From Chloroflexia bacterium (GTDB taxonomy: Bacteria; Chloroflexota; Chloroflexia; DTKN01), in assembly GCA_016928715.1 (NCBI GenBank), contig JAFGKG010000107.1, forward strand, positions 1 to 25,348: a stretch of 25,348 nt of DNA. Reading direction: 5' to 3'. The notes under the pieces are model-generated. The model saw only the letters and a program-made list of their open reading frames with translations, made no database searches and had not been told where the DNA came from. This document shows, one piece after another, positions 3,717 to 25,348 of the stretch. Both the position numbers and the translations under genes were made by a program. How positions within the stretch are numbered: position 1 is the first letter of the stretch; every line of letters starts with the position of its first letter.

Positions 3717-6700
3717 CTACCGCCTTTTCTTCTTGTCCCGCTCCTGCCAGTAGGTCAGGAACAGGCCCAGGTAATCCGGCCACTCTATGATAGGCTTGAT
3801 CTCAAAAGGCGGCGTCCGGGTGACGTACAGCTCCAGCCCCTCCCGGGGCATGTCATAGTGCCAATAGAAAAAGTTGTGCAGATTCCACCGCTCCAGCTTC
3901 TCCCTGACCATGCTCCGGACACGCTTATCGAGCTCTGGTGCTCCGGACTCGTTCAGAGCGATCAGTTCATCCAACTGCTCGTGGATAGAATCCGCCAACA
4001 TGTCCACGAGACCCTTCCAATTGACAATAACATTGCGCTCCAGCAGGCTGCGAATATCCTGCCGCTCCGCGCCAGCCTGATGCAGCGACCCGAACCCGTC
4101 TAGCAGGTCGATCACCGTCCGGGTCAGCCCGTCCAAGTCCCCCTGCCAACCCGGCCGCAATTTGGCCTGCAAAAACTGCCGCACATACTGGCGCTCCTCC
4201 TCGCCCTGCAATCCGCTCTGCCGCACGGCCTTGAAGCGATCCAGGTTTTCAGAGACAAACTCGATCATCCCGTCCAAAAGATCCTCGCGATGGGCCATCT
4301 GGTCCAGGGCCCGGGTGACCTCGCTGAGACGGTTCCGCTGCAGGAGCCACTCCTCCAACTTGGAGGCATAGTCTACTCGATCGGATATCCACTGCAGCGA
4401 GTAGTAAAGTTCCTGCAAAAACCTGATCCAATAATCCGCAAGTCGATGGGCTCGCTCGGCCCGAATATGGGCTCGGATTTGCACCGCTGCCGGCAAATCC
4501 TGCCCCGCTTCAAGATCCTCCTCTATCTCTTGTATGACACCAGAGATCAACCGGGCCAGGTCGGCGACGCCTTTCTGCCAACCGGGGAAAAGCGCCCCTG
4601 CCAACCAGGCCGCCAAGCGCTCCCGCACGAGCTCGGACTCGGCCGGAGCCAGCGACAGGCCCTCCGAGAGCCAGGACTGCAGTTGAACCCAGTCACGCCG
4701 GAGTTGATTTCGCAGCCGCCGCCTCAGCCAGCGGCGCAACCGTTCGCCCTGCCAAGCGGCATTGGGGATAACCAGGCCAGAGGCCTCGAACAATGGGGTC
4801 CAGGGAAAATTCTCGAACAGGGGCAACTCGGTCTTGGCCAGATTGGACTCGACCAATTGGAGAAAGTGACCCTCCAGGTCTTTTTCCAACTCCCCCTTGC
4901 GTTTCAGCGGCCGGCCCCACAAATCCCCGGCCAGGGCATCCCACTTTTGCAGTCGCTGCCTGTAATCAGACAGACATTTGCCCCAAATTTCGTCGACGAT
5001 CTGGCGGGCCTCCTCTAGATCCAGACGGCGGCCGCGCTCATCCCAGGCCCCCTGTAATTTAGTCTCGAGGATCTGGTCCGGCCGGTGCAGCACCACCGCC
5101 TCCACACGGCCCAGATAGGCTTTGACCACATCCTCGATCAGACCGGGATCCAGAACAACACGATCCGCCAGCAATGGGGCCAGCAGTTTGTTGGCCTTTT
5201 CGGTCAATAAAGCCCGATCCAGGCAGATCCCCAGAACAACATCACTCCCAAACAGACGGGATTCGACCTGTTCCAATTGATCCGGGGTCAGTTGCAAGTT
5301 GTAGCCAGCCAGGGCCTCGTTCAGGCGACCCCGCCAATCATCCAACTTGGATGTAAGCAGCGTCCCACGGATCGCCAGGACCGCGGCGCGAGCGGCCTGG
5401 GCCAGCTCTTCCGATCCGCTCCCACCGGCCTGCTCCAACAACATCCCCCGCAGATACGCCTCCACAGATCCTGTCCCAACATGCCACTGCAGCCAGCCCC
5501 AAAAGTACTTTTGGAACAAAGCGATCTGCCGCGGGCTCAAGGGCATGGCATGGTCGTATTCCTTCAATGCCCGGCCGCAGGCCCTGTACAAATCCTCCTG
5601 CACCCGCCGGCACAATCGCCAGACAAAATCCTCGAGGGCTTGCAGGAGCTCCTCTCGATCCTTCTGCAAAGAGTCCGCCAGTCCACTGTATGCCGACTGT
5701 ATCAAAGCGGCAAGCTGCTGCAGGGATTCCTGCCATCCGGGGAAAAAATAGCGGTTCAGCCATCCCACCAGGACCTGTCGATCCATCGCCTGTCGCAGCA
5801 AAAGGATTGTGTCGGGGGACAAGGTCTCCCGCGCCTCCTGCGAAGGCTCGCGCAGAAATTGGCGCCACTGCTCCAGAACGTGGTCCGGCGGCAGCCGCAG
5901 GCGCTCCAGGTCACGCCCCTGAGCTTCCTCTCGCAGCTTTTGCACGAGCCCGGTCGGCAACTGCAGTTGCGAGAACTCGGCAAGGTCCTGCTGATGCATG
6001 GACTGCTCGATCAGCTTGGCCACCTCGCCCTGCGAGGGCAGTTCCTGCAAAGAGAGGGGCTCTGTCCGCAGCGCCCGCCAGTCCCGCCAGAAATCTCGCA
6101 CAAAGAGGCCCAGCAACTCGATCAGTCGCGAGACCTCGTTAGTTTCCAAGCGATCGGGGAGATTCAATAACGGCTCATCATCAATATCAAATCTCTCTCC
6201 CCGCCGCTGCAGCACGGCTTCGGACTGCACGTTAAAGGTCACCCGAATTCGATCGCGGGCCGCACTGCCAGAACGCAGCCATTCCACGATATCGTCCCAG
6301 TTCTGCAGACGAATGACCCGGCCGACCGCGCAGCTCACCAATAACAGCAGGGTCCCCCCAAAAAGAAAGCGCAGGGGTTTATAGCTAAAGCAAACGAGAT
6401 CGAGCAGCACCAAGGGGGCCATTCGCAGCAGGGTGCTGCGGCCCTTTTCGACTTTGCCCAGGGCCAAATACAACAGGGCCGTGATCGCGGCGGCCAACAA
6501 GACCAGGAAAAAGGCGCTCAGATATAACGAGAGATCCCCCTCCGGACTGCGCACCCACATCCAAAGCCACTGCAGCACAACCATCAACACTGTACTCAGC
6601 CAAGATCCCAACCCGGCACAGACGGCCACAAAGGGAGCGTAATAGGCATAGTACCACGGTCCAGGCGACTTGGCCCCCAGGCCTAGGCGATAGAAAAGCC

Positions 6701-6898: not shown

Positions 6899-7720
6899 TC
6901 AAGTCTTTTCCAGGACCGCCAACTGAAACGCGTGTTGGGCCTCCACCATCTGCCCCGGGTCCTCGTAGCGCCGCCGCAACCACTCCCGCAGCTTCTGCAG
7001 GGAGCGCTGGTGCAGATCTTCCGGCACACGCCAGGAATCGGAAAAGGCCCGTTCGGCGACGTGCTCCAGGACCTGCGCCGGGCAGGCCCGGCCCGACCAT
7101 ACCGCCGCGTCGGCTGCCTGTTGGGGCTGCAGGCCCAGCTCGCGCAGGGCCCGGCGCAGCCGTTCCGGCTCGCTCTGGCCCGGCCAACTCACCCGTCCGC
7201 CCATCGAGACCACGATCTCGCGCCAGCGCCCCATCACCTCCTCAAAGGGATTGGGCGTCCCCCAGCGCACCCAGCCCAACAGAAAGCAGCCCCCCGGAGC
7301 GAGCACCCGCCGCGCTTCGGCCAGGGCGGCGCGCCATCCACCGACCAGGTGGAACAGGTAGACGGCCAGGACGGCCTGAAAAGCGCCCCCGGCAAAGGGC
7401 AGGTGCACCACGTCGGCCTCGACCAGGGGGAGGCGCCCCGGTCCCTCCTTGGCCCGCAGCGCCTCCAACATGGGCCGCGACAGGTCGATCCCGGTCACCC
7501 GCAGGCCCCGCGCGGCCAGGGGCAGGGCCAGGCGGCCCGTCCCCACCCCCAGGTCCAACAGGGCCGCGCCCGGCCCCAGCCCGGCCAGCCGGCAGATGCC
7601 GGCCGCCACCCGCTCCGCCACGCCGGGAGGAAAGCCCCGGGTGCGATCGTACAGCGGGGCCGCCCGGTCAAAGGGCAGGGAGCCCCCCCGCAAGGCCGGT
7701 TCGACTACAAAAGCGGACAT
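6899..7720 (-). CDS. Class I SAM-dependent methyltransferase
   Basis: Motif I LLDLGVGTGRLALPLAARGLRVTGIDLS and post-I acidic/hydrophobic motifs (LPLVEADVVHLPF; LAPGGCFLL). Start at ATG 7720 (MSAFVVEP) with AGGAGG 5 nt upstream, 9 nt after the stop of the upstream gene. Confidence 0.8.
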   Translation of the reverse strand: MSAFVVEPALRGGSLPFDRAAPLYDRTRGFPPGVAERVAAGICRLAGLGPGAALLDLGVGTGRLALPLAARGLRVTGIDLSRPMLEALRAKEGPGRLPLVEADVVHLPFAGGAFQAVLAVYLFHLVGGWRAALAEARRVLAPGGCFLLGWVRWGTPNPFEEVMGRWREIVVSMGGRVSWPGQSEPERLRRALRELGLQPQQAADAAVWSGRACPAQVLEHVAERAFSDSWRVPEDLHQRSLQKLREWLRRRYEDPGQMVEAQHAFQLAVLEKT

Positions 7721-7728
7721 CGGGCCTC

Positions 7729-9915
7729 CTAGATCATCCGGGCATTCAACAACACCCACAGCGCCGCGTGGACGGCCGCGTACACCAGCAGTACGGTCAC
7801 CCCGTAGCGCTTGGCCTCGCCGTCCGCGACAACCCGATCGAGCAGATAGCCGCAGAGCAGGGTGTACGGCAGCGCCACCGGGGCAAAGAGATCCCAGTCC
7901 ATCGCGGCGCCCAGGTCCGGGTACATCAACGAGGCAAAGAGCAGCAGCCCCACCGCAGCGAGCAACAGCGCCCGCAGCGCTGGATCCCGCCAGGGCACCC
8001 GCCGAGGCGCCCAGAGCACCAACAGCGCCAGCAGGGGCAGGACCACCGGAGCCACCAAGAGATGTTCGTTGAGCAGGTTGGCCAGGTGCCGCAGGGAAAA
8101 GAGGCTATAGCCATCCGGGCTGCGCAGGGGCACCAACACGTAGGGATTGTTGCCCCGGGTCCAGCCCCCCTGCACCAAGGCCGCCCAATCATAGCCCCCG
8201 GCGCTCAAGAGGGCGACCAGGGCCAGCAGCGGCAGCGCCCCTGCCAGCAGCAGCCGGCCCAGCAGCAGCCGGCGCGGCGCCCCCGCCGGCAGATCCTGCC
8301 AGGCCCGCACGAGCGTATAGAGCACCGCCGGCCCCACCAGGAGGGCCTGCAGGTGGCAGGCGCAGGCCAATACCCACAGCGCCAGCACCAGCGCCGGCCG
8401 GCCCCGCCCACGCAGGACGCGCAGCATCTGCCAGAACAGGGCCAGCAGGGCCACCGTCACAAAGGTATAGTTCTCCAGGTAGCCGAAACCGAACTGCACC
8501 GTGGCCAACGTCGCCAAGAGGGCAAAGGCGGCCACCCGGCCAAAACGTCCTCGGGCCACCTCCTCGCTCAGGGCCGCCGCCAGCGCCACGTAGAGCGCCC
8601 CCAACACCACGCCGCTGAGCACATAGACGTCCTCCACCCGCCAGCCCCAGAGCCGCTCGGCCCATTGGTAGAGCGTGGCCTGGCTGAAAAAGGCCAATAT
8701 CTCGGCCTCTTTGAAACGATAGCCCGCGCCAATGTGGGCGATCAGGTGGGGGCCGTCCCCCCAGAGCACCCGCGAACGCAGGGCATAGCCCAGGGGGACA
8801 AAGAGCAGGCCCAGCAGCAGCCAGCGGCCCGGAGGACGCAGGCGCGGCGCCAGCCGGTGGCCCAGACGGATCAGGCCCCGGACCAGGCGGCGCAGGTCCC
8901 GATTGAAGCGGGGGATCGCCGCGCAGGCCACCGCCAGCAGGGGCAGCCAGCGCAGTAGGGACCGGGGGAAGGGGCCGGCCGGCGCGTAAAAGGGCTCCAA
9001 AACCTGCAGTGCCCAACTGCCCCCCACCGGCAGATAGGGCGTGAGCAGGTGCAGCAGGGCCAGGACCAGGGCCAGCAGCAGGCAGGCCAGGGCAAAGGGG
9101 GCCCAGGGGCGCTCCCGCCGCCGGGAGGAACGGGCCCAGCCCAAGGCCGACCGGCCCCGGAAAAGCCGGCCCACCAGGGCCGCCCCCAGCAGCACCCCCA
9201 GCAGCAGGCCGGCCCAGGGAAGCACGGCCGGCAGAAAACGGGCCAACAGCAGGCTCAGCAGCAGTTCCAGGGACAAGCCCAGGGCCAGACCGGCCTCCAG
9301 CGGCCAGCCCAGTGCCCAGGAAAGGGCCAGGGCGGCCAGGCCCACGGCGCTCCAGAGCAGGACCAGCGGCCAGAGCAGGCCGGTGGGCCGCAGGGGGCGG
9401 GAGGCGTGCAGCCGGTCCACGATTCCCCCCAGGTGGCGGGCGTCGCCGGGCGGCTGAAAGGTCTCGGTGCGCAGCTCCAGCACGCTCTCCCAACGCCAGG
9501 CCGAGGGGGCCTCGTAGACCAGGTGATAGAGGTGCGGGCCCGGGGCCGGCTCGATGCGCAGCGCGGGCCGGCCGTCCAGCCACAGCGTCACCGCCGCCGT
9601 CTCGAAAGCCGGCGGCCGGCTGCCGTCCAGGCGCAGGGTCAAACGCCGGGGCGCGCCCAGAACCGGCAGGCGGATACGCGCCCGCGAGGTCGTCCAACGA
9701 TAAGTATAGAGGCCGTTATCCTCCCAATCGTAAAAGCCCTGCAGCCGGCCCCACTCCCCCGGCCCCAGGTCCAGGGTGTAGCCGGGGGAGAGGCGGCCAG
9801 CCGTGCAGACCCCGGCCAGTGCCACCAGGAACAGGACCAGGACACCCAGCAGCAGGCGCCCATAGGTGGATCGCCCCTCGTTCAACACGGCCCGGCGTCC
9901 CCTCAACGCACCCAT
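7729..9915 (-). CDS. Large polytopic integral membrane protein (~728 aa), possible GT-C-type glycosyltransferase/DUF family. N-terminal TM + ~130-aa extracytoplasmic domain, then >10 TM helices
   Basis: Very hydrophobic Leu/Ala-rich helices throughout. Protein-like loops (YTYRWTTSRARIRLPVLG; IAHIGAGYRFKEAEILAFFSQATLYQWAERLWGW). Overlaps the upstream gene by 13 nt. Confidence 0.7.
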   Translation of the reverse strand: MGALRGRRAVLNEGRSTYGRLLLGVLVLFLVALAGVCTAGRLSPGYTLDLGPGEWGRLQGFYDWEDNGLYTYRWTTSRARIRLPVLGAPRRLTLRLDGSRPPAFETAAVTLWLDGRPALRIEPAPGPHLYHLVYEAPSAWRWESVLELRTETFQPPGDARHLGGIVDRLHASRPLRPTGLLWPLVLLWSAVGLAALALSWALGWPLEAGLALGLSLELLLSLLLARFLPAVLPWAGLLLGVLLGAALVGRLFRGRSALGWARSSRRRERPWAPFALACLLLALVLALLHLLTPYLPVGGSWALQVLEPFYAPAGPFPRSLLRWLPLLAVACAAIPRFNRDLRRLVRGLIRLGHRLAPRLRPPGRWLLLGLLFVPLGYALRSRVLWGDGPHLIAHIGAGYRFKEAEILAFFSQATLYQWAERLWGWRVEDVYVLSGVVLGALYVALAAALSEEVARGRFGRVAAFALLATLATVQFGFGYLENYTFVTVALLALFWQMLRVLRGRGRPALVLALWVLACACHLQALLVGPAVLYTLVRAWQDLPAGAPRRLLLGRLLLAGALPLLALVALLSAGGYDWAALVQGGWTRGNNPYVLVPLRSPDGYSLFSLRHLANLLNEHLLVAPVVLPLLALLVLWAPRRVPWRDPALRALLLAAVGLLLFASLMYPDLGAAMDWDLFAPVALPYTLLCGYLLDRVVADGEAKRYGVTVLLVYAAVHAALWVLLNARMI

Positions 9916-12900
9916 AGCGCCCCCAGATCCAGGCTGTCCCCCAGGGATTCCCCCGCGGCCGAGAAAACGGGCAAGCGCTGCATGGTGACCGGGTCATAGA
10001 CGGCCACGATCAGGCGGTAGCGGCCCGGCGGGGCCTCGGCGTCGACTTGCAGGGGGATGTCGTCGCGAATGTGCTGCCCCGGCTGCCAGAGCGTCGCCGG
10101 ATACCACTGCCCCAGGGGCCCATCCCACTGTCCCCAGAGCCGGTCCGGGCCGACGATCTGGGCCGTGACGAAATAGTCGAGCGGCAGTGGATCCAAAGCG
10201 CCCCACTCCAGGGCCAGGGGCACGCGATCGCCCGGTTCAAAGGGGCCCGCGCCCAGTTCGTAGGCGGTCAGCTCGAGGCCGGGGCCAAAACGCGCCCCGG
10301 AGGGCTGGGCCGGGCTGTGCGGCCAGAGCAGGGCAGCCGAGAGGTCCAGGGCGGTCAAATCCCGTACGGCGCCGTCCTCCCATTGGAAATGGGCCAGCGG
10401 CCGCACGGCCACGATCTCTTGCCCGTAATAGACCCACAGCGCGGCAAAGTAAGAGCCGGGGGGGAGCGCCGACCACGTCTCGGCCCCCGCCGGAAAAGCG
10501 CGCTCCTCCCCCTCCACCCAGGCCTGGGCGCTGCGGGCCTCCAGGTCCGCCCGCAGGCGCAGGCTGCCGCGATCGGGCAGGGCCAGCGGGCCCCACCAGG
10601 CATAGTGTTGGGCGCCATGGAAGGTATCCTCCCAGACCTCCAGCCCCAGGCGCAGGGGCCGGCCGCTGTCGTTTTGCAGGCGCAGGTCGATCTCCAGGAC
10701 CGTGCCCTCGACGCTCGTATCGGGCGCCAGCAGCACCTCCTGCGGTTGGGGCCACAGCCCGCCGGGCGCGCTGCCCTGCTGCAGGGCGACCCAGCAGGGC
10801 CAGAGCGGCCCCTCGGCCTGCAGGGAGACCTGCACGCGGCCGGGCAGCTCGCGGGGATCGCTGCCATACAGCGAAAAGCCGGCCGGCAGGTCGACGGTCT
10901 CGGTGGTGCCGTCCTCCCAGCGCACACTGAGCCGGGTCGGCTCGGGAGCAGCCAGGGCCAGGAGCAGGGAGCGGCGTCCGGCCTGGTCCGCCAGTTCGCC
11001 CGGCTGCCGGCCGAGGCCGGCCCCGTCGGCGTAAAAGACGAGCGACCGGCCCGGTTCCAGGGTGGGGTAGGGGCCATAGCTCTGCAGGAGCCGCTCGGCC
11101 AGGGGCTCGCGGGCGTGGATCTCGGCCGCCGGCCGCCCGCTGTAGGCGTCCGCGCGCAGGTCCAAAAAGGCGACGATGGCCGGGTCGCGCCGGTACAGGG
11201 CCATGCCGCCGCCGGCCCAAATGCGCTCTTGGGGGAAAAAGCCCAGGGGGTGGGGGTCGTCGGCCCCATCGAGCAGTGCGTAGGCCGGGGCCAGGCCGGG
11301 GACGCGCCGGTCCTGGGCACCGTAGGCCAGGCTCAGGCGGCCATAGACGGGGTGGGCGCGCAGAAAATAGGCGAACAGGCCCAACTGGACGCGCGAGCGC
11401 TCCGGCCGGCCGGTGAGATAGACGGAGGCCCCCGGCGGCAGGAGCGCCGCAGCCTCCTCAACCTGCAGCGCGGCCCGACCAAAATGCGCCGGCCGCTCCC
11501 AGTAGGGGGCCAGGACCAGGGCGTCGGCCCGCAGGAAAAGGAGCAGGGGGACCAGGAACAGGGCCAGCAGGGCAGCCTGTGCGAGGCGCCGCCGGGTGCC
11601 CGAGGCCGGCCGGACCAGCCAGGCCCAAAGCCGGTCCCAACCCTCCATCAGCAGGCCCAACAGCAGCGGCGCGACCAGGACGGCGCCCTTCATATAGGCG
11701 TAGGGATAGGGCTTGAAGCGCTCGGCCAAAGCCGCGCCCAACAGGCCGCGCTGCTGCAGGGCCCGGGCGGCCGGCCAGAACCAGCCGGCCAGCCAAGCCA
11801 AATAGAGCGCGCCGGGCAGGATCAACGACAGCCACAGCCAGCGCAGCCGGCTGCGCCAGAGTGCTGCCAGGAGCAGCAGGGCGCACAGCCCCAGGCCCAG
11901 CCACTGGAGGCCCCGGTCCAGGGCGGACAGCGCGGCGGCGGTGCGGGAAAAGGGCAGCAGGCCCAGGGCCTCCCCCGGCGAGATCAGGCGAAACAGGCCC
12001 AGCGTCGTCATCTGCTGGGAATAGCGAAAGGCAAAGCCCTGCCCATAGTCCAGGACCGGGCCCAGGGCCAGCAGCACCGAGAGCAGGGCCGTGCCTAGGC
12101 CGGTCAGCAGGAAGGCCCGGCGGCGCTGGCTGCGGATCAGCTCGTACAGGCCCAGGCCCAGCGCGGCAGGCACAAACACGGTCAGGGCCGGATAGTAGGC
12201 GATGGGCAGCACGGCCACCGCCGCCGCCCCCAGCAGCACCGTGGAGGCGGCCGGCCGGCGCAGCACGGCCAGCCAGAGCAGCAGGGCCAGGGGGACCAGG
12301 GGCAGGGCGGCCATCTGCATGCCGAAATTGAACAGCGCGATCCACAGACCCAGGGCATAGAGGGCGACCAGCAGGCTGGCCAGGAGGGCCGAGCGGTGCC
12401 CCATGCGCAGACCACGCCGGAACAGCAGATAGAAGGCCAGCACCGCCAGGCCGCGCAGCAGGGCCAGCGTGGGCGCAAAGCTGCGCAGCGCGTCCCAGCC
12501 CCGGAGCTGCTGCAGGCTGCCCTGCAGGATGCTAAAGCCCAGGGTCAGGCCAATGCGCGGGGGAGAGGCGTTCAGGTCGCGCAGCGGGTTGGGCGGCATT
12601 TCCCCGATCTGGCCCAGGGGCACCTGCAGCAGGTACTCGGCCACCGGCAAATAGTTCTCTGGGTCCCAGTTCTCGCCGATCACGGTGATATAGCCGTAGC
12701 GCATCAGCGGCAGCGCACCCAGCAAAAAGGCCAGCAGGGCCATCAGCCAGACCGGCCCGTGCCGGCGCCAGTTCGGGCTCAACCGCTCCCCCCGCCGCCG
12801 CCTCAGGGCCAGGCTGTTGATGAGCAGGCCCAAGGTCAGGGCCAGCCAAAAGGCCCCGCGCAGGTCCAGGACCGTGCGCAGGCTGTAATAGCCTACCAGC

Positions 12901-13128: not shown

Positions 13129-15765
13129 CTACCTTTCCCGCAGCCGCGGTTCAAAGATGCGCTCCAAGGCGACACCCAACATGACGAAAGCGAAACCGAC
13201 GAGCAGGAGCAGCGCCAGCGGCTGCAGTACCACGTGATAATCCCCGGTATAGATGCCCCGAGAGAGACCGTCCGTGATCAGCTTGCCCCAGGTAGGCAGC
13301 ACGGGATCGCTCATCCCCATAAAGGCCAGCGTCGCCTCCAGAAAGACGTAACCCGGCACCAGGATGACCAACTGCGGGACCAGCACGGGGATGATGCGCG
13401 GGATCAGGTAGTGAAAGACGATGCGCCAATCCCCGGCCCCGTAGGAGCGGGCGGCCTCGATATACGACGCCCCCTTCATCTGCAAAAAGATGGAGCGATA
13501 GTTCTTGATCTGCGGGCCAAAGATACTCAAAAGCACGGTGACGCCCAAGAGCACCCAAAAGGTCTTGGAATAGAGGATATAGATCATGAGGCTGACGGGG
13601 AGAAAGGGCAGGATCAGGTTCACCTCGGTGATGCGCTGAATGATGGCATCCATCCAACCGCCGAACCAGGCGCCGATCGCGGCGATCATCATCGTGATCA
13701 ACGAGGTACTGACCGCCGCCAGGATGCCAAAGGACAGGGCCACCGGCATCCCCCAGAGCAGGGGCACCAGTAGATCCCGCCGACGATGGTCCGTCCCCGC
13801 CAATCCATAGACCTGTCCGTAGAGGATAAACTTGGCGTCCACGTCGGCGCCCTCCTCGAACACGAACGACTGCACCCGCAGTTCGTAGTGTCCCTCCAGG
13901 GCAACGGGGTCCTCGGGCTGCGGGTCGATAAACAACACCCGCACCGGGGATAGCTCCAGATCCACCCTCCAGAACGGCCTGCGGTTCAGCTTGCGGCGCA
14001 GGCTCTCGTCCTGGGAGAAAATATAGGTCTGCCGGGACGAGCGCAGCGAATCGGTCAGCAGATCGATCTCCCGGCCGTCGGGCCTCACCCAGGTCAGGGC
14101 GACATGCGGCGACTTGACGTCATATTGGGCCTCAAAGTAGAGGCTCAAGTCCTGGGGAAATCCTTCGTACGGAAAATCAAGGGGAAAGGAAAAACTGATC
14201 TCGGTCATGTCCTCCGAGATGGCGCGCACGCTCTTGTCGATCGACCGCTCCCGACTGTCCAGGATAAAGGTCTTGGGCAAATCGTCCTTCCTGAAAAGAT
14301 TGACCCAGGTAGGATAGGCGTTCTGCGGATTGTACCTCCAGCTCTCCTCGTCCTCGCGCCAGCGTGCGATCATCTCATCGTAGGGGATGGCGATCACGGC
14401 ATAGACCGAAAGGCCGATCATGACCACAATGATGGACAGGCCGAACAGGGCCGAGGGATGCCGCACGATCTCGCGCAGCGCCGGTTTGAACTGTTCCAGG
14501 CGGTCTCGCAGCGTTTTCCTGGATGCCAGGAGGCTGTTGCGCGGGCGATCGGGCGCGGCCGACGGGAGAAAGGCCGTCCAGGAGGGCCTCGCCCGGCGCT
14601 CAAAGGGCCGCCGCAGGGCACGCCTGAACGCCTCCAGGCGCTCCCGCAGGCTGGGCCGGCGGGCGCCCAGCGCCGCGCTGTCCTTTTGCGCGCCGCTGTC
14701 GATCCGCACCCGGGGATCTACCAGGGCATAGATAATGTCCAGTAAAAAGATCGTGATCGCCAAAAGATAGGCAAAGGCCGTCACGAGAGCCACGATCATC
14801 GGCGTGTTAAAGCGATGCAGGGCGCCCCAAAAGAGCCGCCCGATGCCCTCTACCTTGAAAAACTGCTCCAGTACGATCACCTCCTGCCAGAGGTTGACGA
14901 ACAGCAGGGCAAAACTGGTCACCAGGTAGGGCAGCACCGGCCTCAGGATATAGCGCCGTTCGAGCATGCCGGCGGGCAATCCCTTGGCCTTGGCCATCTC
15001 GACGTGATCCTCGCTGGCATAGATCAAAAAGAAGGTGCGCCAGGCATAGACGCTCTGTATGAACCCGCTGAGAAAGATGGCCAGGAAGGGCAGCAGCATA
15101 CGCTTGAGCAGGATCGGCAAATATCCCCAGGTAAACTCGCCGGGCCAGGCATCCAGGACCCCCCCGGTAGACAGGCCGCCCAACACCCGGATAGAGAGCA
15201 GGTTCAGGACAATGCCCAAAACCCAGGCCGGTACAGAGGACAAGGGGGAAAGCATCACGATAAAGCGGTCCATCCAGCGGCCGTACTTGCGGGCCAGCGG
15301 CGCCGCCACAAAGACGCTGGCGAAGAAAAGCAAGAGGTTGGCCGGGCCAAACAGGAGCAGCGTACGGGGCAAGCTGTCCAGAATCTGCGCCCGCATATCC
15401 TCCCCCCAATCGAGCCTCAGGCCCTGGCCCAGCCAGCGAAAACAGCGCAGCATAAAGGGCTCGTTCAAACCGGCCGCCTCCTCCATGGCCGCTTGGGTCT
15501 CCTCCACGAGCGCCATCCGCTCTTCGAGGGAGACGTCCCGCAGCCAGCCCCCCCGAATCCGCATGGCAATAGCCCAGGAGATGTTGTTGCGGATCACCAC
15601 GTCGACAAAACCACCCAGGTTGGCGATGAGGATAATCAGGTACACGGCCACGACGACGGTAAAGGCGAGCGAGACCGCCCGCACCGCCGTGTAGCGGGCC
15701 AGGCGGGCCAGCAGCGTGGTGCGCAGGCGTTTGAGCATTGCGTTGACACTTGTCCGTAGAGCCAT
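13129..15765 (-). CDS. Fused ABC transporter permease (OppB/DppB-like N-terminal half + OppC/DppC-like C-terminal half, peptide/nickel type), 878 aa
   Basis: Two EAA-type permease signatures (...LIYASEDHVEMAKAKGLPAGMLERRYILRPVLP... and ...KGASYIEAARSYGAGDWRIVFHYLIPRIIPVL...). About 220-aa extracytoplasmic insert after the first TM of the C-terminal half. AGGAGA RBS before ATG 15765. No ATPase or binding protein adjacent. Confidence 0.85.
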   Translation of the reverse strand: MALRTSVNAMLKRLRTTLLARLARYTAVRAVSLAFTVVVAVYLIILIANLGGFVDVVIRNNISWAIAMRIRGGWLRDVSLEERMALVEETQAAMEEAAGLNEPFMLRCFRWLGQGLRLDWGEDMRAQILDSLPRTLLLFGPANLLLFFASVFVAAPLARKYGRWMDRFIVMLSPLSSVPAWVLGIVLNLLSIRVLGGLSTGGVLDAWPGEFTWGYLPILLKRMLLPFLAIFLSGFIQSVYAWRTFFLIYASEDHVEMAKAKGLPAGMLERRYILRPVLPYLVTSFALLFVNLWQEVIVLEQFFKVEGIGRLFWGALHRFNTPMIVALVTAFAYLLAITIFLLDIIYALVDPRVRIDSGAQKDSAALGARRPSLRERLEAFRRALRRPFERRARPSWTAFLPSAAPDRPRNSLLASRKTLRDRLEQFKPALREIVRHPSALFGLSIIVVMIGLSVYAVIAIPYDEMIARWREDEESWRYNPQNAYPTWVNLFRKDDLPKTFILDSRERSIDKSVRAISEDMTEISFSFPLDFPYEGFPQDLSLYFEAQYDVKSPHVALTWVRPDGREIDLLTDSLRSSRQTYIFSQDESLRRKLNRRPFWRVDLELSPVRVLFIDPQPEDPVALEGHYELRVQSFVFEEGADVDAKFILYGQVYGLAGTDHRRRDLLVPLLWGMPVALSFGILAAVSTSLITMMIAAIGAWFGGWMDAIIQRITEVNLILPFLPVSLMIYILYSKTFWVLLGVTVLLSIFGPQIKNYRSIFLQMKGASYIEAARSYGAGDWRIVFHYLIPRIIPVLVPQLVILVPGYVFLEATLAFMGMSDPVLPTWGKLITDGLSRGIYTGDYHVVLQPLALLLLVGFAFVMLGVALERIFEPRLRER

Positions 15766-20157: not shown

Positions 20158-21549
20158 CTACCACCTTTGTACGGCCCTGAAGGCGGCCTCAAAGCACGCC
20201 GCCGGTGCTCGCAGCACGCCCGCCCCGACCATGCCGATGCCGGGTTCCTTGTGGGCGATGCCGGTGTTGAGCCGGGGCCGGATGCCGCTTTCCGCCACCA
20301 GGCGCACATCGATGCCCAGGGGCGTGCCGCGAAAGTCGAGGGCCGGCAGGGTGAAATGCTCGTGCTCGGCAAAGCAGATCTCGTACATCTCCAGGGTGGT
20401 CTCCAGGGCGTCCTCGGGGCTGCCCCCGACAAAGCGGGCGATGGCCGGCGCGCCGGCCATGGCAAAGGCGCCAAAGCCGGCCGTCTCGGTGACCGTGCTG
20501 TCGCCGATGTCGGGGTTGGCGTCCTCGGCGCCAAAGCCGGGCAGGTAGAGGCCGTCCACGACCCCGGCCGGGGCGGTGAACCAACGCTCGGGCTCGCCGG
20601 CCAGGCGGATGCCAAAGTCGGTGCCGTTGCGAGCCATTACGCTCAGGACCGTGCTGCCGGGGATGCCCTCGGCCGGCTCCAGTAAGGCCTTGGCCGCGGC
20701 CATGGAGAGGTTGAGGAAGAAATGGTCGTTCTTTTCAATAAACTCAAAGACCGCGGCCGCCCGCTGCCCGTCCGGGCAGGTGCGCATCAGGGCCGGGGTG
20801 ATGGCGCGCAGAAAGAGCGAGGTGCCGGCGCGGTTGCGGTTGTGGCATTCGTCGCCCATGTGCAGGGCCTGGCTGATCAGGGCGCGCAGGTCAATGCCGT
20901 CCTCGATCGATTCCAGGGCCGCCTGCAGGGTGGGGTAGAGCATCTCTTCCATCCAGCGCAGCCGCTCATAGACCCCCGGGCCGTAGGCGCCGTAGCGCAG
21001 CACCCGGCCCAGTCCCTCGTTCTGGGTGGCATAGGCCAGGTTGCCATAGGCCTGGTTCTCGACGACAAAGACGGGCATGGAGGGCGAGATGATGCCGGCC
21101 ATGGGCCCCACGGCGTGGTAGTGGTGGCAGGGGGCGAACTCGACCTCGCCCTCGGCGGCCAGGGCCGCAGCCTGTTCTTCGTCCTCGGCCAATCCTTCGT
21201 AGACCAGGGCGCCCATGACCGCCCCTCGCTGGGGCCCGCACATGCGCTCCCAGGCGATGGGCGGGCCGGCGTGCAGGATGAGGCGGTCGTGGCAGCCGGG
21301 GATGACCTGGCGAGCCGGGCCCAGGCCGAGTAGGCGGGGCCGGCCGGCGTTGATGCGCCGGCAGGCCTCGGCGTTGGCCGCCTCGATGTCGATGCCCTGC
21401 CCGGTGTGGTGCAGCTTGGGCACGCGCGGTGGGCTCCAGTCCACTTGGGTGACCGCCGCGCCCTGGGCCCGCAGGCTCTGGGCAAAGGCGTCCAGGCCGG
21501 CGTTGATGGCGTAGAGGGGGCGGGGAAGGAGATTGGATTTTTCTGCCAC
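20158..21549 (-). CDS. Conserved FdrA-partner protein, probably DUF1116 (YlbE-like) family
   Basis: 463 aa. GTG start 21549 preceded by AGGAGC. Sits immediately downstream of the FdrA-like gene, as ylbE does after fdrA. Family assignment from gene context and size only. Confidence 0.6.
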   Translation of the reverse strand: MAEKSNLLPRPLYAINAGLDAFAQSLRAQGAAVTQVDWSPPRVPKLHHTGQGIDIEAANAEACRRINAGRPRLLGLGPARQVIPGCHDRLILHAGPPIAWERMCGPQRGAVMGALVYEGLAEDEEQAAALAAEGEVEFAPCHHYHAVGPMAGIISPSMPVFVVENQAYGNLAYATQNEGLGRVLRYGAYGPGVYERLRWMEEMLYPTLQAALESIEDGIDLRALISQALHMGDECHNRNRAGTSLFLRAITPALMRTCPDGQRAAAVFEFIEKNDHFFLNLSMAAAKALLEPAEGIPGSTVLSVMARNGTDFGIRLAGEPERWFTAPAGVVDGLYLPGFGAEDANPDIGDSTVTETAGFGAFAMAGAPAIARFVGGSPEDALETTLEMYEICFAEHEHFTLPALDFRGTPLGIDVRLVAESGIRPRLNTGIAHKEPGIGMVGAGVLRAPAACFEAAFRAVQRW

Positions 21550-21566
21550 GGTTGTGCTCCTGTGAG

Positions 21567-21582
21567 AACGTGAAAACGTGAA
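21567..21582. repeat. Tandem direct 8-mer AACGTGAA x2 in the 34-nt FdrA/DUF1116 intergenic spacer
   Basis: gAACGTGAAAACGTGAActc read directly. Shares the ACGT(G/T) core and 8-bp period of the terminal array at 25027-25348. Confidence 0.5.
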
Positions 21583-21583
21583 C

Positions 21584-23140
21584 TCAATACTCAAGGATGC
21601 GGCCGGCCAGTCGGGCGGCGGCGGCGTTGCAGGGCGCGACGACGGCACCGGCGCCTTCCAGCGCCCCCACCTGCCGCTGCAGGTCCTGGGGGTCGTCGGC
21701 CGTCCCGGTCACCGAGGCCACCACCAGCAGCTCGCGGCCGTCTTGGGCGGCCTGCGCCCGCGCCCGGTAGAGGGCCGGGGCCAGTTCGGCGGCCGGGTCG
21801 GGGTGGGCGCCGTAGCCCAGGACGATGTCCAGCAGGATCACGGCGACCTCGGGATCGGTGGCCTCCTGGAAGAGGCGGCGGATGCGCAGGTCGTGGTCGA
21901 GCATGGGGTGCGGCCGGCCGACGGTAAACTCGTCCGCGCCCAGGTCCAGCAGGCAGTGGCCCTGGCTGCGGGCCGGGTCGGGCAGGGCCAGCTCTGGCCG
22001 CAGCGGCACGTTGGAGCGGACCGCGCCCAGGCTGTCCTCCAGGACGATCAGGGCCTCGCCGGCCAGGGTGCCGCCGCTGTAGAGGCCGCGTAGGCAGCGC
22101 TGGCCCGCCTGCAGCCGCGCGGCCAGCTCGCCGGCCAGGGCCCGCTGCTCGGCGCGCTCGCGCTCCAGGGCCTGCTCAAGGGAGGGCCCGCTGTAGCCCG
22201 CGACCTGGGCCGCGGTCCGGTAGGCCGCCTCCTGCAGGGTGCGGGCGGGGATGACCGCGCTGGCGAGCTCGGTTTCGCCGCCCAGGAAACAGACCACGGT
22301 GGGCTTGTCGCCCCGGCCGGCCTGGGTCAACACACGTTCGGCCACGGACGCGGCGGGCGGCTTGGAGATGAGCAGCAGCACCTCGCTGGCGGGGTCCTGC
22401 TGCAGCCGCCGCAGGCCCTCCAGCATCATGAGGCCGCCGACGGCCTCTTTGAGATCGCGGCCGCCCGTGCCGATGCCCTGGCTGAGCCCGACCCCCAGCC
22501 GGGCCAGCAGGCAGGCGGCCTCCTGCAGGCCGGTGCCCGAGGCCGAGACGATGCCCACCGGGCCGCGGGGGACGGCGTTGGCAAAGCCCAGGGCCACCCC
22601 GTCGAGGATGGCCGTGCCGCAGTCGGGCCCCATCAGCAGCAGGCCGTGTTCGACGGCGTAGCGCTTGAGGGCGACCTCGTCCTCCAGGGGCACGTTGTCG
22701 CTAAAGAGCAGCACGTGCAGGCCCTGGTGCAGGGCCTCCCAGGCCTCGGCGGCGGCGTGGGCGCCGGGCACCGAGATCAGGGCCAGGTTGGCGGCCGGCT
22801 GGGCCCGCGCGGCGCTGCGGATGGAGCGGGGGCGAAAACCGCGGCGGCCGCCGGGCCCGGACGCGGGCCGGCGGGCCAGCAGTTGCCCGGCCCGTTCCAG
22901 GGCCTGCTCGGCGTCGGACTGGCTCTCGGCCCGCACGGCGACGAGCAGGTCGTTGGGGCCGGCCGCCTCGCTCTCGGGCTGCAGCAGGCCGGCCTCGCGC
23001 AGCAGGGCCTTGTTGGCGCCGGTGCCCATGACCACGGCGGCGTCCTGGACGCCGGCCAGTTGGGTCAGATCCCGGGCCACCTGCATCAGGGTGACGGAAT
23101 CGCGATAGGTGCTCGCCTGGAGCAGAGTTTGTACAGGCAT
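21584..23140 (-). CDS. fdrA: FdrA-family protein (succinyl-CoA-synthetase-alpha-like CoA-binding/ligase-CoA domains)
   Basis: SCS-alpha-like motifs (GIVSASGTGLQEAACLLARLGVGLSQGIGTGGRD; LLISKPPAASVAERVL). 518 aa. GGAGG RBS then ATG 23140. Confidence 0.75.
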   Translation of the reverse strand: MPVQTLLQASTYRDSVTLMQVARDLTQLAGVQDAAVVMGTGANKALLREAGLLQPESEAAGPNDLLVAVRAESQSDAEQALERAGQLLARRPASGPGGRRGFRPRSIRSAARAQPAANLALISVPGAHAAAEAWEALHQGLHVLLFSDNVPLEDEVALKRYAVEHGLLLMGPDCGTAILDGVALGFANAVPRGPVGIVSASGTGLQEAACLLARLGVGLSQGIGTGGRDLKEAVGGLMMLEGLRRLQQDPASEVLLLISKPPAASVAERVLTQAGRGDKPTVVCFLGGETELASAVIPARTLQEAAYRTAAQVAGYSGPSLEQALERERAEQRALAGELAARLQAGQRCLRGLYSGGTLAGEALIVLEDSLGAVRSNVPLRPELALPDPARSQGHCLLDLGADEFTVGRPHPMLDHDLRIRRLFQEATDPEVAVILLDIVLGYGAHPDPAAELAPALYRARAQAAQDGRELLVVASVTGTADDPQDLQRQVGALEGAGAVVAPCNAAAARLAGRILEY

Positions 23141-23206: not shown

Positions 23207-24952
<1,746 letters not shown>

Positions 24953-25026
24953 ACCTGGGTCGCGATCTCGAGCAAGCTGTCCACGCCCCCCTTGGTGATG
25001 GACACGTGCGATCTCGCGCCGATAAA

Positions 25027-25348
25027 GGACGTTGGCGCGTTGGAACGTTCACACGTTCGCGCGTTAGAACGTTGGAACGTTCGAACGTTATGGGGGCAAG
25101 TGAAGGGTCAGGGGGAAAAGGGGGAAAAGACGTTGACACGTTCGCACGTTGGAACGTTAACACGTTCGCACGTTAACGCGTTGGGTACGGTTGACGGTTG
25201 CACGTTGACGGTTGAACGTTCGGGGCAAGTGGTGGGCCGGGGCGGGAAGAGCGGGAACGTTAGAACGTTCGCACGTTCGCGCGTTATGGGGGCAATTGAC
25301 GGTTGGGGGGAACGAGTGGGGAGAGACGTAGGGGCGGGCCGCCCCAAC
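25027..25348. repeat. Higher-order tandem repeat: three arrays of 8-bp-periodic NNNNCGTT units (about 8, about 12 and 4 copies; NNNN = ggaa/caca/cgcg/agaa/cgaa/gaca/cgca/aaca), each followed by a ~35-60-bp G-tract module (GGGGGcaaGTGaaGGGtcaGGGGGaaaaGGGGG etc.). Runs to the window edge
   Basis: Read directly: ggaacgtt cacacgtt cgcgcgtt agaacgtt ggaacgtt cgaacgtt | atgggggcaagtgaagggtcagggggaaaagggggaaaaga | cgttgacacgttcgcacgttggaacgttaacacgttcgcacgtt... | cggggcaagtggtgggccggggcgggaagagcggg | aacgttagaacgttcgcacgttcgcgcgtt | atgggggcaattgacggttgggggg.... The G modules each carry at least 4 G-runs (G-quadruplex-competent) and resemble one another. Confidence 0.7.

Follow-up and report, generated by a model that had tools for sequence, protein, structure and literature searches.

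The 25,348-bp contig JAFGKG010000107.1 of a Chloroflexia metagenome-assembled genome (MAG; assembly GCA_016928715.1), which was analyzed at its complete length and is called the window below, ends in a patchwork of short tandem repeats. This patchwork takes up the last 323 nt (positions 25026–25348) and contains three blocks of the tetranucleotide CGTT at an exact 8-bp spacing, so that the contig-end repeat considered in an original prediction, made from the sequence alone, was confirmed. We think it rather probable that the region is an overgrown, non-coding compound of an undescribed family of octamers with an ACGTT core, of the type of the short tandemly repeated repetitive (STRR) sequences and long simple sequence repeats (LSSRs), and that it grew in decayed DNA through slippage and the duplication of blocks. 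The feature is genuine and of an ordinary kind; the sequence family is new, and the copy is unusually large.

The pattern CGTT-N4-CGTT-N4-CGTT has 14 overlapping matches in the window, all within 25030–25285, where 100 shuffles gave an expectation of 0.00, and the identity between bases 8 nt apart (lag-8) reaches 0.50 in the tail, compared with 0.27 for the remaining sequence. Tandem Repeats Finder (TRF) returned arrays with periods of 8, 16, or 24 at 25029–25090, 25130–25184, and 25257–25285, as well as a stretch of period 7/14 and of the ACGGTTG type at 25187–25220. For arrays 1 and 2, the longer periods gave 79–86% matches versus 71–75% for period 8. The octamer periodicity is real and far beyond chance, and the three strictly periodic blocks of the original prediction were thereby confirmed. 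Strict in-register N4CGTT units number 19 (8 + 7 + 4), and the predicted total of about 24 is approached only by counting some five additional degenerate units of the ACGGTTG type. The first array starts at 25026 and not at 25006, as had been proposed.

CGTT is invariant in 19/19 units (2 bits per position), while the preceding N4 takes 12 different forms. The unit consensus is N-R-[CAG]-R-CGTT, with G or A at position 2 of N4, C, A, or G at position 3, and A or G at position 4; T is absent from all 76 N4 positions. Several units recur (GGAACGTT four times, CGCACGTT three times, AGAACGTT and CGCGCGTT twice each). All units and the G-rich modules that accompany them have one polarity, with CGTT on the plus strand in every unit and no inverted partner within the contig, and the plus strand of the tail is composed of 41% G and 19% C (GC ~60%, GC skew +0.36). 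The palindrome AACGTT, previously described as the core of the units, is present in only 8 of the 19. A proposed Z-DNA propensity of the N4 parts did not hold, as 25006–25348 contains no alternating purine/pyrimidine run of at least 8, where the remainder of the window has 34 (1.36 per kb).

Each array block is followed by a related G-rich module that opens with (AT/C)GGGGCAA(G/T)TG (Table 1). The three modules start at 25093, 25222, and 25289 and share a mutual identity of 71–75% over 28 nt, in agreement with the predicted alternation of arrays and modules. A 72-nt array-plus-module segment at 25062 recurs at 25258 (196 bp apart, 79% identity), and array 2 shows a 24-bp super-period (TRF, 86% matches), with 3 nt of its first unit overlapping module 1. 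A fixed higher-order repeat of 90–130 bp, also part of the original prediction, was not found, the spacing being irregular (129, 67, and 196 bp). Seven of the 18 G-rich regions of the window with a G4Hunter score of at least 1.5 fall in the last 260 nt, and their maximum of 2.0 is the highest in the window. In silico, the modules are thus good G-quadruplex (G4) candidates by score, but only module 2 fits the canonical G3+N1-7 definition. Module 3 ends in a short palindrome, GGGGCGG-G-CCGCCCC (25331–25345), 3 nt before the contig end.

Table 1 Positions of the repeat blocks, the miniature array, and the flanking gene relics in the window.
Feature	Coordinates	Strand	Description
Array 1	25026–25089	+	Eight units: AGGA, GGCG, GGAA, CACA, CGCG, AGAA, GGAA, CGAA, each followed by CGTT
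G-rich module 1	25090–25129	+	ATGGGGGCAAGTGAAGGGTCAGGGGGAAAAGGGGGAAAAG, includes (GGGGGAAAA)x2 (TRF period 9); G 53%, C 5%; G4Hunter 2.0
Array 2	25127–25182	+	Seven units: AAGA, GACA, CGCA, GGAA, AACA, CGCA, AACG, each followed by CGTT
Degenerate 7/8-bp array	25183–25220	+	ACGGTTG / CACGTTG / AACGTTC
G-rich module 2	25221–25253	+	CGGGGCAAGTGGTGGGCCGGGGCGGGAAGAGCG; sole canonical G4 motif, 25234–25255
Array 3	25254–25285	+	Four units: GGAA, AGAA, CGCA, CGCG, each followed by CGTT
G-rich module 3	25286–25348	+	ATGGGGGCAATTGACGGTTGGGGGGAACGAGTGGGGAGAGACGTAGGGG...; within the 79%-identical copy of 25062–25133
Miniature second array	21561–21583	-	GTT-CACGTTTT-CACGTTCT-CACA
P-type (Ca/Mg) ATPase internal fragment	24766–25005	-	~80 codons, corresponding to residues 446–528 of an 880-aa Ca-ATPase (E = 2e-8)
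SBP_bac_5-type solute-binding gene	23207–24760	-	~488 N-terminal codons missing

As already argued in the original prediction, the structure is neither a clustered regularly interspaced short palindromic repeat (CRISPR) array nor a coding region. Its units are 8 bp long and contiguous, versus CRISPR repeats of 23–50 bp with unique spacers, and the lag-3 identity of 0.20 in the tail against 0.31 elsewhere shows no coding periodicity. The arrays remain open in several frames because 8 is coprime to 3, and a conserved CGTT would rotate through all codon positions; the open reading frames (ORFs) of the tail are frame-independent artifacts. Spurious ORFs of 79–122 aa with an ...ERxNVxTx... repeat were noted on both strands of 24795–25347. 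A coding 8-residue repeat, or a small peptide with the ATG of modules 1 and 3 as its start, was rejected, as module 2 has no ATG, the frames are not conserved, and 3-periodicity is lacking. A HIP1-like general over-representation of AACGTT in the window was rejected as well (1 observed versus 1.4 expected outside the arrays).

Arrays of this kind were also found in other genomes, whose loci are given by their L numbers where they have to be told apart. A scan for five CGTT at 8-bp spacing, in one genome per species for 185,579 species, gave at least 120 loci, about half of those listed being ordinary perfect microsatellites. Among the matches listed, ~24 are heterogeneous arrays that combine an ACGT/AACGTT core with a variable dinucleotide, like those of the window. 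Fifteen of these belong to Chloroflexota (Anaerolineae, Caldilineales, Chloroflexia, Roseiflexaceae), and the other hosts among the matches listed comprise two Acidobacteriota MAGs, a Methylomirabilota MAG, a filamentous cyanobacterium, two Bacteroidota, and others. Five viral contigs carry at least four AACGTT units at 8-bp spacing, four of them in heterogeneous form, where control hexamers of equal composition (ATCGAT, AAGCTT, TTGCAA) gave perfect microsatellites only, or nothing, in viral contigs. A Calditerrivibrio plasmid (Deferribacterota) has (RGAACGTT)n after a gene. The unit consensus of the window is close to RRMACGTT, and arrays with the ACGTT core were shown to fill short intergenic spacers, mostly in Chloroflexota, and also in other phyla and in viral contigs. 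In the literature, sequences of ACGTT-core octamer arrays were found only in papers on synthetic CpG oligonucleotides.

The arrays of the family are short (28–68 bp). Of 28 arrays placed by a heuristic gene call, co-directional (tandem) spacers hold 14, convergent spacers 4, and a divergent spacer 1; another 8 are inside heuristic ORFs. Several fill the entire spacer and stop within 0–20 nt of a start codon or ribosome-binding site (L034, L071, L085, L100, L125, L127, L128, and the miniature array of the window), a closeness that is largely forced because the spacers are short. In one cyanobacterial locus (L099), each of four consecutive intergenic regions within 8 kb contains an array, and L023 and L061 have two arrays each. 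Unrelated genes flank the arrays (permease, aminotransferase, peptidase, tail protein, holin), and a regulon was rejected since these genes have nothing in common. Elsewhere than in the window, the arrays are strand-symmetric, and in 13 co-directional spacers the spacer bases have no polarity relative to transcription. Taken together, the family arrays show no preference for a gene function or a spacer orientation. A common dispersed repeat with no positional specificity, the outcome that the original prediction had set against its own proposals, is largely what the other genomes hold, together with the small second copy in the window.

This miniature array fills the 23-nt spacer between the stop codon of an FdrA-like gene (21586–21584) and the GGAG ribosome-binding site (21560–21557) of an AllG-like gene, and its three-unit pattern is expected 0.05 times per window at 1 mismatch. 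The longest ORF of the AllG-like gene (20158–21648, minus strand) begins at a GTG (21648) inside the FdrA-like gene. The true start is likely the GTG at 21549–21547, with the GGAG 7 nt upstream.

Of 30 ACGT-core arrays, 6 also have a G- or C-tract block within 80 nt, versus 2.3 expected. The tract blocks of L015 and L023 resemble the (GGGGGAAAA)n of the window, and in both loci (L015, 700–800; L023, 5179–5270) an ACGTT-core array stands between G-tract and C-tract arrays of short period (in L015, GGGGGTA GGGGGTT GGGGATT ... CCCCGGG CCCCCGG). Base pairing between the two flanks would be possible, with the self-complementary array enclosed by them.

A single locus recovered from two metagenomes (L121 and L123) bears on the way such arrays change in length. 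Its two versions are identical over 226 aligned columns save one 8-bp unit within the array, a difference that reads as the signature of slipped-strand mispairing, in a relative of the family and not at the window's own locus. In the window, the super-periods of 16 and 24 bp, the recurring units, and the duplicated 72-nt segment point to duplication of blocks of one to three units and of an array together with its module. Replication slippage would lengthen or shorten the arrays by whole units, and duplication of two- to three-unit and array-plus-module blocks would enlarge them further. Next to an ATPase fragment and a truncated solute-binding protein (SBP) gene, the compound of the window would have expanded beyond 320 bp, because nothing constrains length in dead DNA, and it is probably this compound that stopped the assembly.

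The two relics that had been placed next to the array, a truncated P-type ATPase and a 5′-truncated SBP gene, were both confirmed by protein alignment. The ATPase fragment has no start context, and neither a close homolog nor an intact source of it was found among 5.8 billion proteins. Residues 65–422 of the SBP ORF align to residues 489–846 of an 850-aa homolog, and homology to relatives starts at ~24760, precisely where the ATPase fragment ends. By these alignments, the array is embedded in scrambled, decayed DNA. In the closest relative (L129, 1–300; Logan SRR25621645), whose SBP is 76% identical, the SBP gene is likewise truncated and a repeat-rich stretch precedes it. Its repeats differ from those of the window (TTACGAAAAGCGTAACCGCTGTCTTTCCCTCG twice, ~150 bp apart, plus GGTTACG/CGTAACC motifs). 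The region upstream of the SBP pseudogene seems to gather repeats in both lineages.

Several described repeat classes provide a frame for this interpretation. STRR heptamers of filamentous cyanobacteria are hairpin-capable and have no established function (PMC2670836), LSSRs with units of 5–11 nt are general in prokaryotes (PMC4679880), and a scattered heptamer satellite family is found in Chloroflexus aurantiacus (PMC6749651). The repeats studied here have the head-to-tail units of 5–11 nt, the non-coding location, and the unit length that is not a multiple of three. Like STRRs and LSSRs, the arrays of the family consist of tandem, variable units of 7–8 nt, are dispersed over non-coding spacers, are often hairpin-capable, and change in length by whole units. 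They differ in the unit of 8 nt instead of the usual 7, in the ACGTT/AACGTT core with its free dinucleotide, and in their mainly Chloroflexota hosts.

The TAACTGA heptamers that immediately precede start codons in Beggiatoaceae, Cyanobacteria, and Bacteroidetes undergo whole-unit indels, show no downstream-gene pattern, and were proposed as S1, Csp, or CsrA sites (MacGregor 2015, PMC4679880). ACGTT-core arrays resemble them in being intergenic, often a few nucleotides before a start codon or ribosome-binding site, in the lack of a pattern of downstream function, in a patchy distribution across phyla, and in their whole-unit indels. TAACTGA sets point towards the start codon, whereas ACGTT-core arrays have no such polarity, and the terminal compound of the window is not upstream of a functional gene but faces a gene fragment only. 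The G-rich heptamers of Xanthomonas and Nostoc (GGGNATC / GGGGA(C/T)T) occupy the gaps between aligned ORFs, give rise to transcripts, and fold into G4s in vitro (Rehm et al. 2015, PMC4692102). The modules of the window share with them at least four G-tracts, a high in-silico G4 propensity, and a non-coding location, and block 1 has (GGGGGAAAA)x2; they differ in being irregular, with one canonical G4 motif and without a run of four or more heptamer units.

Several observations weigh against an overgrown repeat compound. The invariant core and the absence of T from 76 spacer positions are unexplained by slippage, and the units and modules of the window have a single polarity (reflected in the GC skew) versus the strand-symmetric arrays elsewhere. 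With more than 320 bp and at least 19 units, the compound is five to ten times the size of a typical family member, and dispersal within its own genome amounts to one further miniature array, within the 25-kb contig. No ACGT-core array was present in 87 kb from five loci of relatives chosen regardless of repeats, and the family is therefore lineage-patchy. A metagenome scan for the exact composite (array plus GGGGCAAKTG) turned up nothing beyond an unrelated locus present in two samples and a single chance match, and a protein-database search with the translated repeat gave no resembling entry. Since CGTT is conserved while the other four positions vary, slippage alone is not the whole story. 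The core would be held by selection or by a sequence-specific step, most likely through recognition by an abundant factor in an 8-nt register. We do not think that the window copy has a local function such as that of an origin, a centromere, or an attachment site.

Recognition of this kind has precedents on duplex DNA. MetJ occupies metboxes, which are tandem 8-bp sites (AGACGTCT), ParG recognizes ACTC boxes with a 4-bp spacing in TP228 parH, and the omega heptads are a further example of a ribbon-helix-helix operator. For an octamer array, a function has been proven by experiment only in the type Ib parS of plasmid pESBL: each octamer is bound by one small ParB in electrophoretic mobility shift assays (PMC7602700). 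Geobacter metallireducens has 48 sites of four tandem GTTGCTYN octanucleotides, paired on opposite strands and proposed as global-regulator sites (Aklujkar et al. 2009, PMC2700814). The arrays of the window could accordingly be a binding platform on double-stranded DNA, coated by a small dimeric protein (ribbon-helix-helix or type Ib ParB-like) with one core per 8 bp, and serve as a partition centromere, an operator, or a global-regulator site, which we consider unlikely. The strict 8-bp register with an invariant core and a free spacer fits such a platform, as do the palindromic AACGTT core and the lack of strand preference elsewhere, both expected of a dimer on duplex DNA, and the G/C-tract blocks near arrays, which are somewhat above chance. 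The contig moreover ends inside the structure, and a partner operon could lie beyond. Against this, no ParA, small DNA-binding protein, Rep, or plasmid or phage gene was recognized in the 25 kb, no phage match and no meaningful plasmid match was obtained, and only 8/19 cores of the window are palindromic. The arrays of the family, lying in convergent, tandem, and divergent spacers by unrelated genes, are also too many and too scattered for one operator set.

The comparison with these systems is similarly divided. The Geobacter sites are, like ours, multicopy tandem 8-nt sites with a conserved core and variable last positions, and many Chloroflexota arrays are inverted pairs, but the Geobacter sites have four units in opposite-strand pairs and the window at least 19 in a single orientation. 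Type Ib centromeres and ribbon-helix-helix operators share the strict-register units of 7–8 bp, the short conserved core, and the direct or inverted arrays; they adjoin parA/parB or a regulated operon, on a plasmid or in a defined regulon, whereas the window has no such genes and the family is scattered. The parA and small parB genes that a type Ib partition centromere would adjoin were not found among the proteins of the window (Pfam, NCBIfam), whose context is chromosomal in type. A link to partition through the Calditerrivibrio plasmid was rejected, the array there simply following a gene for an 'ATP-binding protein' with no par annotation.

The factor might instead act on RNA. A minus-strand transcript would form a C-rich, G-poor leader with AACG punctuation, suited to Rho loading, to binding of a post-transcriptional regulator, or to a role as an intercistronic spacer or stabilizer, a possibility that we hold to be quite unlikely. 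The minus strand runs in the same direction as all neighboring genes, its RNA would be C-rich given the base composition of the plus strand, and it folds better than shuffles (z = −3.9). Members of the family often fill intercistronic spacers near ribosome-binding sites or start codons, where TAACTGA heptamers are also placed (PMC4679880), and G-rich heptamers are transcribed (PMC4692102). The placement near start codons is, however, largely that forced by short spacers. The spacer bases have no polarity in the 13 co-directional spacers, and the terminal compound is followed only by a gene fragment without start context. No promoter-like or terminator-like site was found by scan, and an Rfam search of the window gave nothing at gathering thresholds and only noise at E <= 10. 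A hairpin or terminator formed by complementary spacer dinucleotides was rejected, as the spacers are, by eye, not complementary, and the fold z-scores (−2.5 and −3.9) are at the level that self-complementary ACGT cores yield anyway.

An assembly artifact, in the form of a mis-joined or collapsed repeat ending a short-read MAG contig, appears very unlikely to us, although the contig stops in the structure itself, a pair of unrelated gene fragments has been brought together at ~24760 and ~25005, and the source is a metagenome bin. Within 25006–25348, the longest exact repeats are 15 nt (direct) and 14 nt (inverted), and no 15-mer of the tail occurs elsewhere in the contig. With assembler k-mers taken as ~21 nt or more, a collapsed k-mer loop is unlikely because the exact repeats are shorter than this size, and the heterogeneous units provide no cycling k-mer. 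The ATPase fragment has no near-identical source in the protein set searched, the relative with 76% identity, which comes from another sample, likewise shows repeats ahead of a truncated SBP gene, and similar arrays occur in many independent assemblies, complete chromosomes included.

Iterons are ~17–22 bp long and helically phased, and their origins come with an adjacent rep gene, an AT-rich unwinding element, and DnaA boxes. An iteron-type origin or a prophage boundary, as raised by the original prediction, or else an island boundary or an attachment site, has only the many direct repeats beside disrupted genes in its favor and is extremely improbable, given the 8-bp unit, the lack of an AT-rich stretch in a tail of ~60% GC, the absence of a skew switch at the contig end, and the absence from the window of rep, par (parA/parB), dnaA, integrase, and phage genes (Pfam, NCBIfam) and of tRNAs. 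A comparison with 50,697 phage records gave no match, and one with 72,556 plasmids gave only two, both short and confined to the array.

Short tandem arrays of this type are general in the phylum. In 137 kb of Chloroflexota loci, TRF returned 31 period-7 and 32 period-8 arrays, many of them heterogeneous, and the tandem heptamers and octamers are often arms of inverted pairs (GACCAAR...TTGGTCY, GACGAWR, ATTCGC-type octamers). Locus L111 (Ca. Ribeiella danica, Roseiflexaceae) has at least five hairpin-type elements in 8 kb with arms of tandem heptamers (GACCAAR...TTGGTCY and others; for example 15–84, 1964–2084, 2784–2861, 5675–5752, and 7624–7713), which we take to resemble cyanobacterial STRR2 (TTGGTCA). 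In L141, a locus fetched through a gene homolog regardless of repeats, (AGTRAAG)x15 is directly followed by (NATTCGCN)x12 at 1938–2157, in the spacer after an SbcC-like gene. The ATTCGC octamer also occurs in L051 and L085 and, by its sequence, looks like a second octamer family in Chloroflexota. On a viral contig (L124, 11208–11466; IMGVR_UViG_3300022559_000016), three 8-bp arrays (TTTTAACG/TTAAAACG, GGTACRTA, and AATTAACG) stand side by side in an 870-bp non-coding gap between DNA methylase-like and SRAP-like ORFs, near UmuD-/UmuC-like ORFs (identities judged by eye from the translations). Mosaic compounds like that of the window are not unique; this one is only unusually large. Heterogeneous (CGTTATNN)n octamer arrays were also seen in Prevotellaceae/Bacteroidales MAGs (L047, L077, L080, L092, L109, L014, L019, L108, L120), with a conserved 6-base core and two variable bases, several of them 5–21 nt upstream of an ATG and one (L108) as an inverted pair. 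These share the architecture of the Chloroflexota arrays, with another core and in another phylum.

The proteins of the window are of ordinary chromosomal types, among them an ABC permease, a cyclase, a CLC channel, AllG, and FdrA (Pfam, NCBIfam), and one is 100% identical to the 488-aa hypothetical protein MBN1484632.1 (locus tag JXA37_07910). A stretch of ~5.5 kb (7000–12500) has a GC content of 0.70–0.75 with flanks of 0.53–0.64 and contains a methyltransferase gene (6899–7759) and two large minus-strand ORFs of 728 aa and 1050 aa (GC at third codon positions 0.88–0.89) with no Pfam or NCBIfam match. It may be a horizontally acquired or fast-evolving membrane-protein block. An 878-aa ORF (13129–15765, minus strand) has two BPD_transp_1 stretches, and in homologous operons the SBP gene is directly followed by two separate permease genes (379 and ~444 aa). 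From this comparison, the permeases of the window look fused and lie 7.4 kb from the truncated SBP gene, in an operon that would have been scrambled.

The most far-reaching proposal would make the ACGTT-core arrays cis-sites of an undescribed sequence-specific DNA- or RNA-binding factor with a strict 8-nt register, shared by Chloroflexota, Acidobacteriota, some cyanobacteria, Deferribacterota, and their phages; we regard it as speculative and improbable. If true, it would amount to a cross-phylum regulatory or chromosome-organizing code, and the block in the window, whose sites number at least 19 and come with G-tract modules, would be a platform of exceptional size, perhaps an arm of some larger structure that the contig end cuts off. 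In practice, repeats of this kind break assemblies, stay open in every frame, and yield spurious ORFs of the sizes given above, and they should not be annotated as an origin, a centromere, or a gene. What is left for the biology of the family is modest but real: a core of 4–6 bases remains invariant amid free neighbors and recurs in several phyla and in viral contigs, for which plain slippage is insufficient. The same question is posed by the cyanobacterial STRRs, the TAACTGA repeats, and the G-rich heptamers, and a clean octamer with a palindromic core is a convenient probe for the factor, if one exists.

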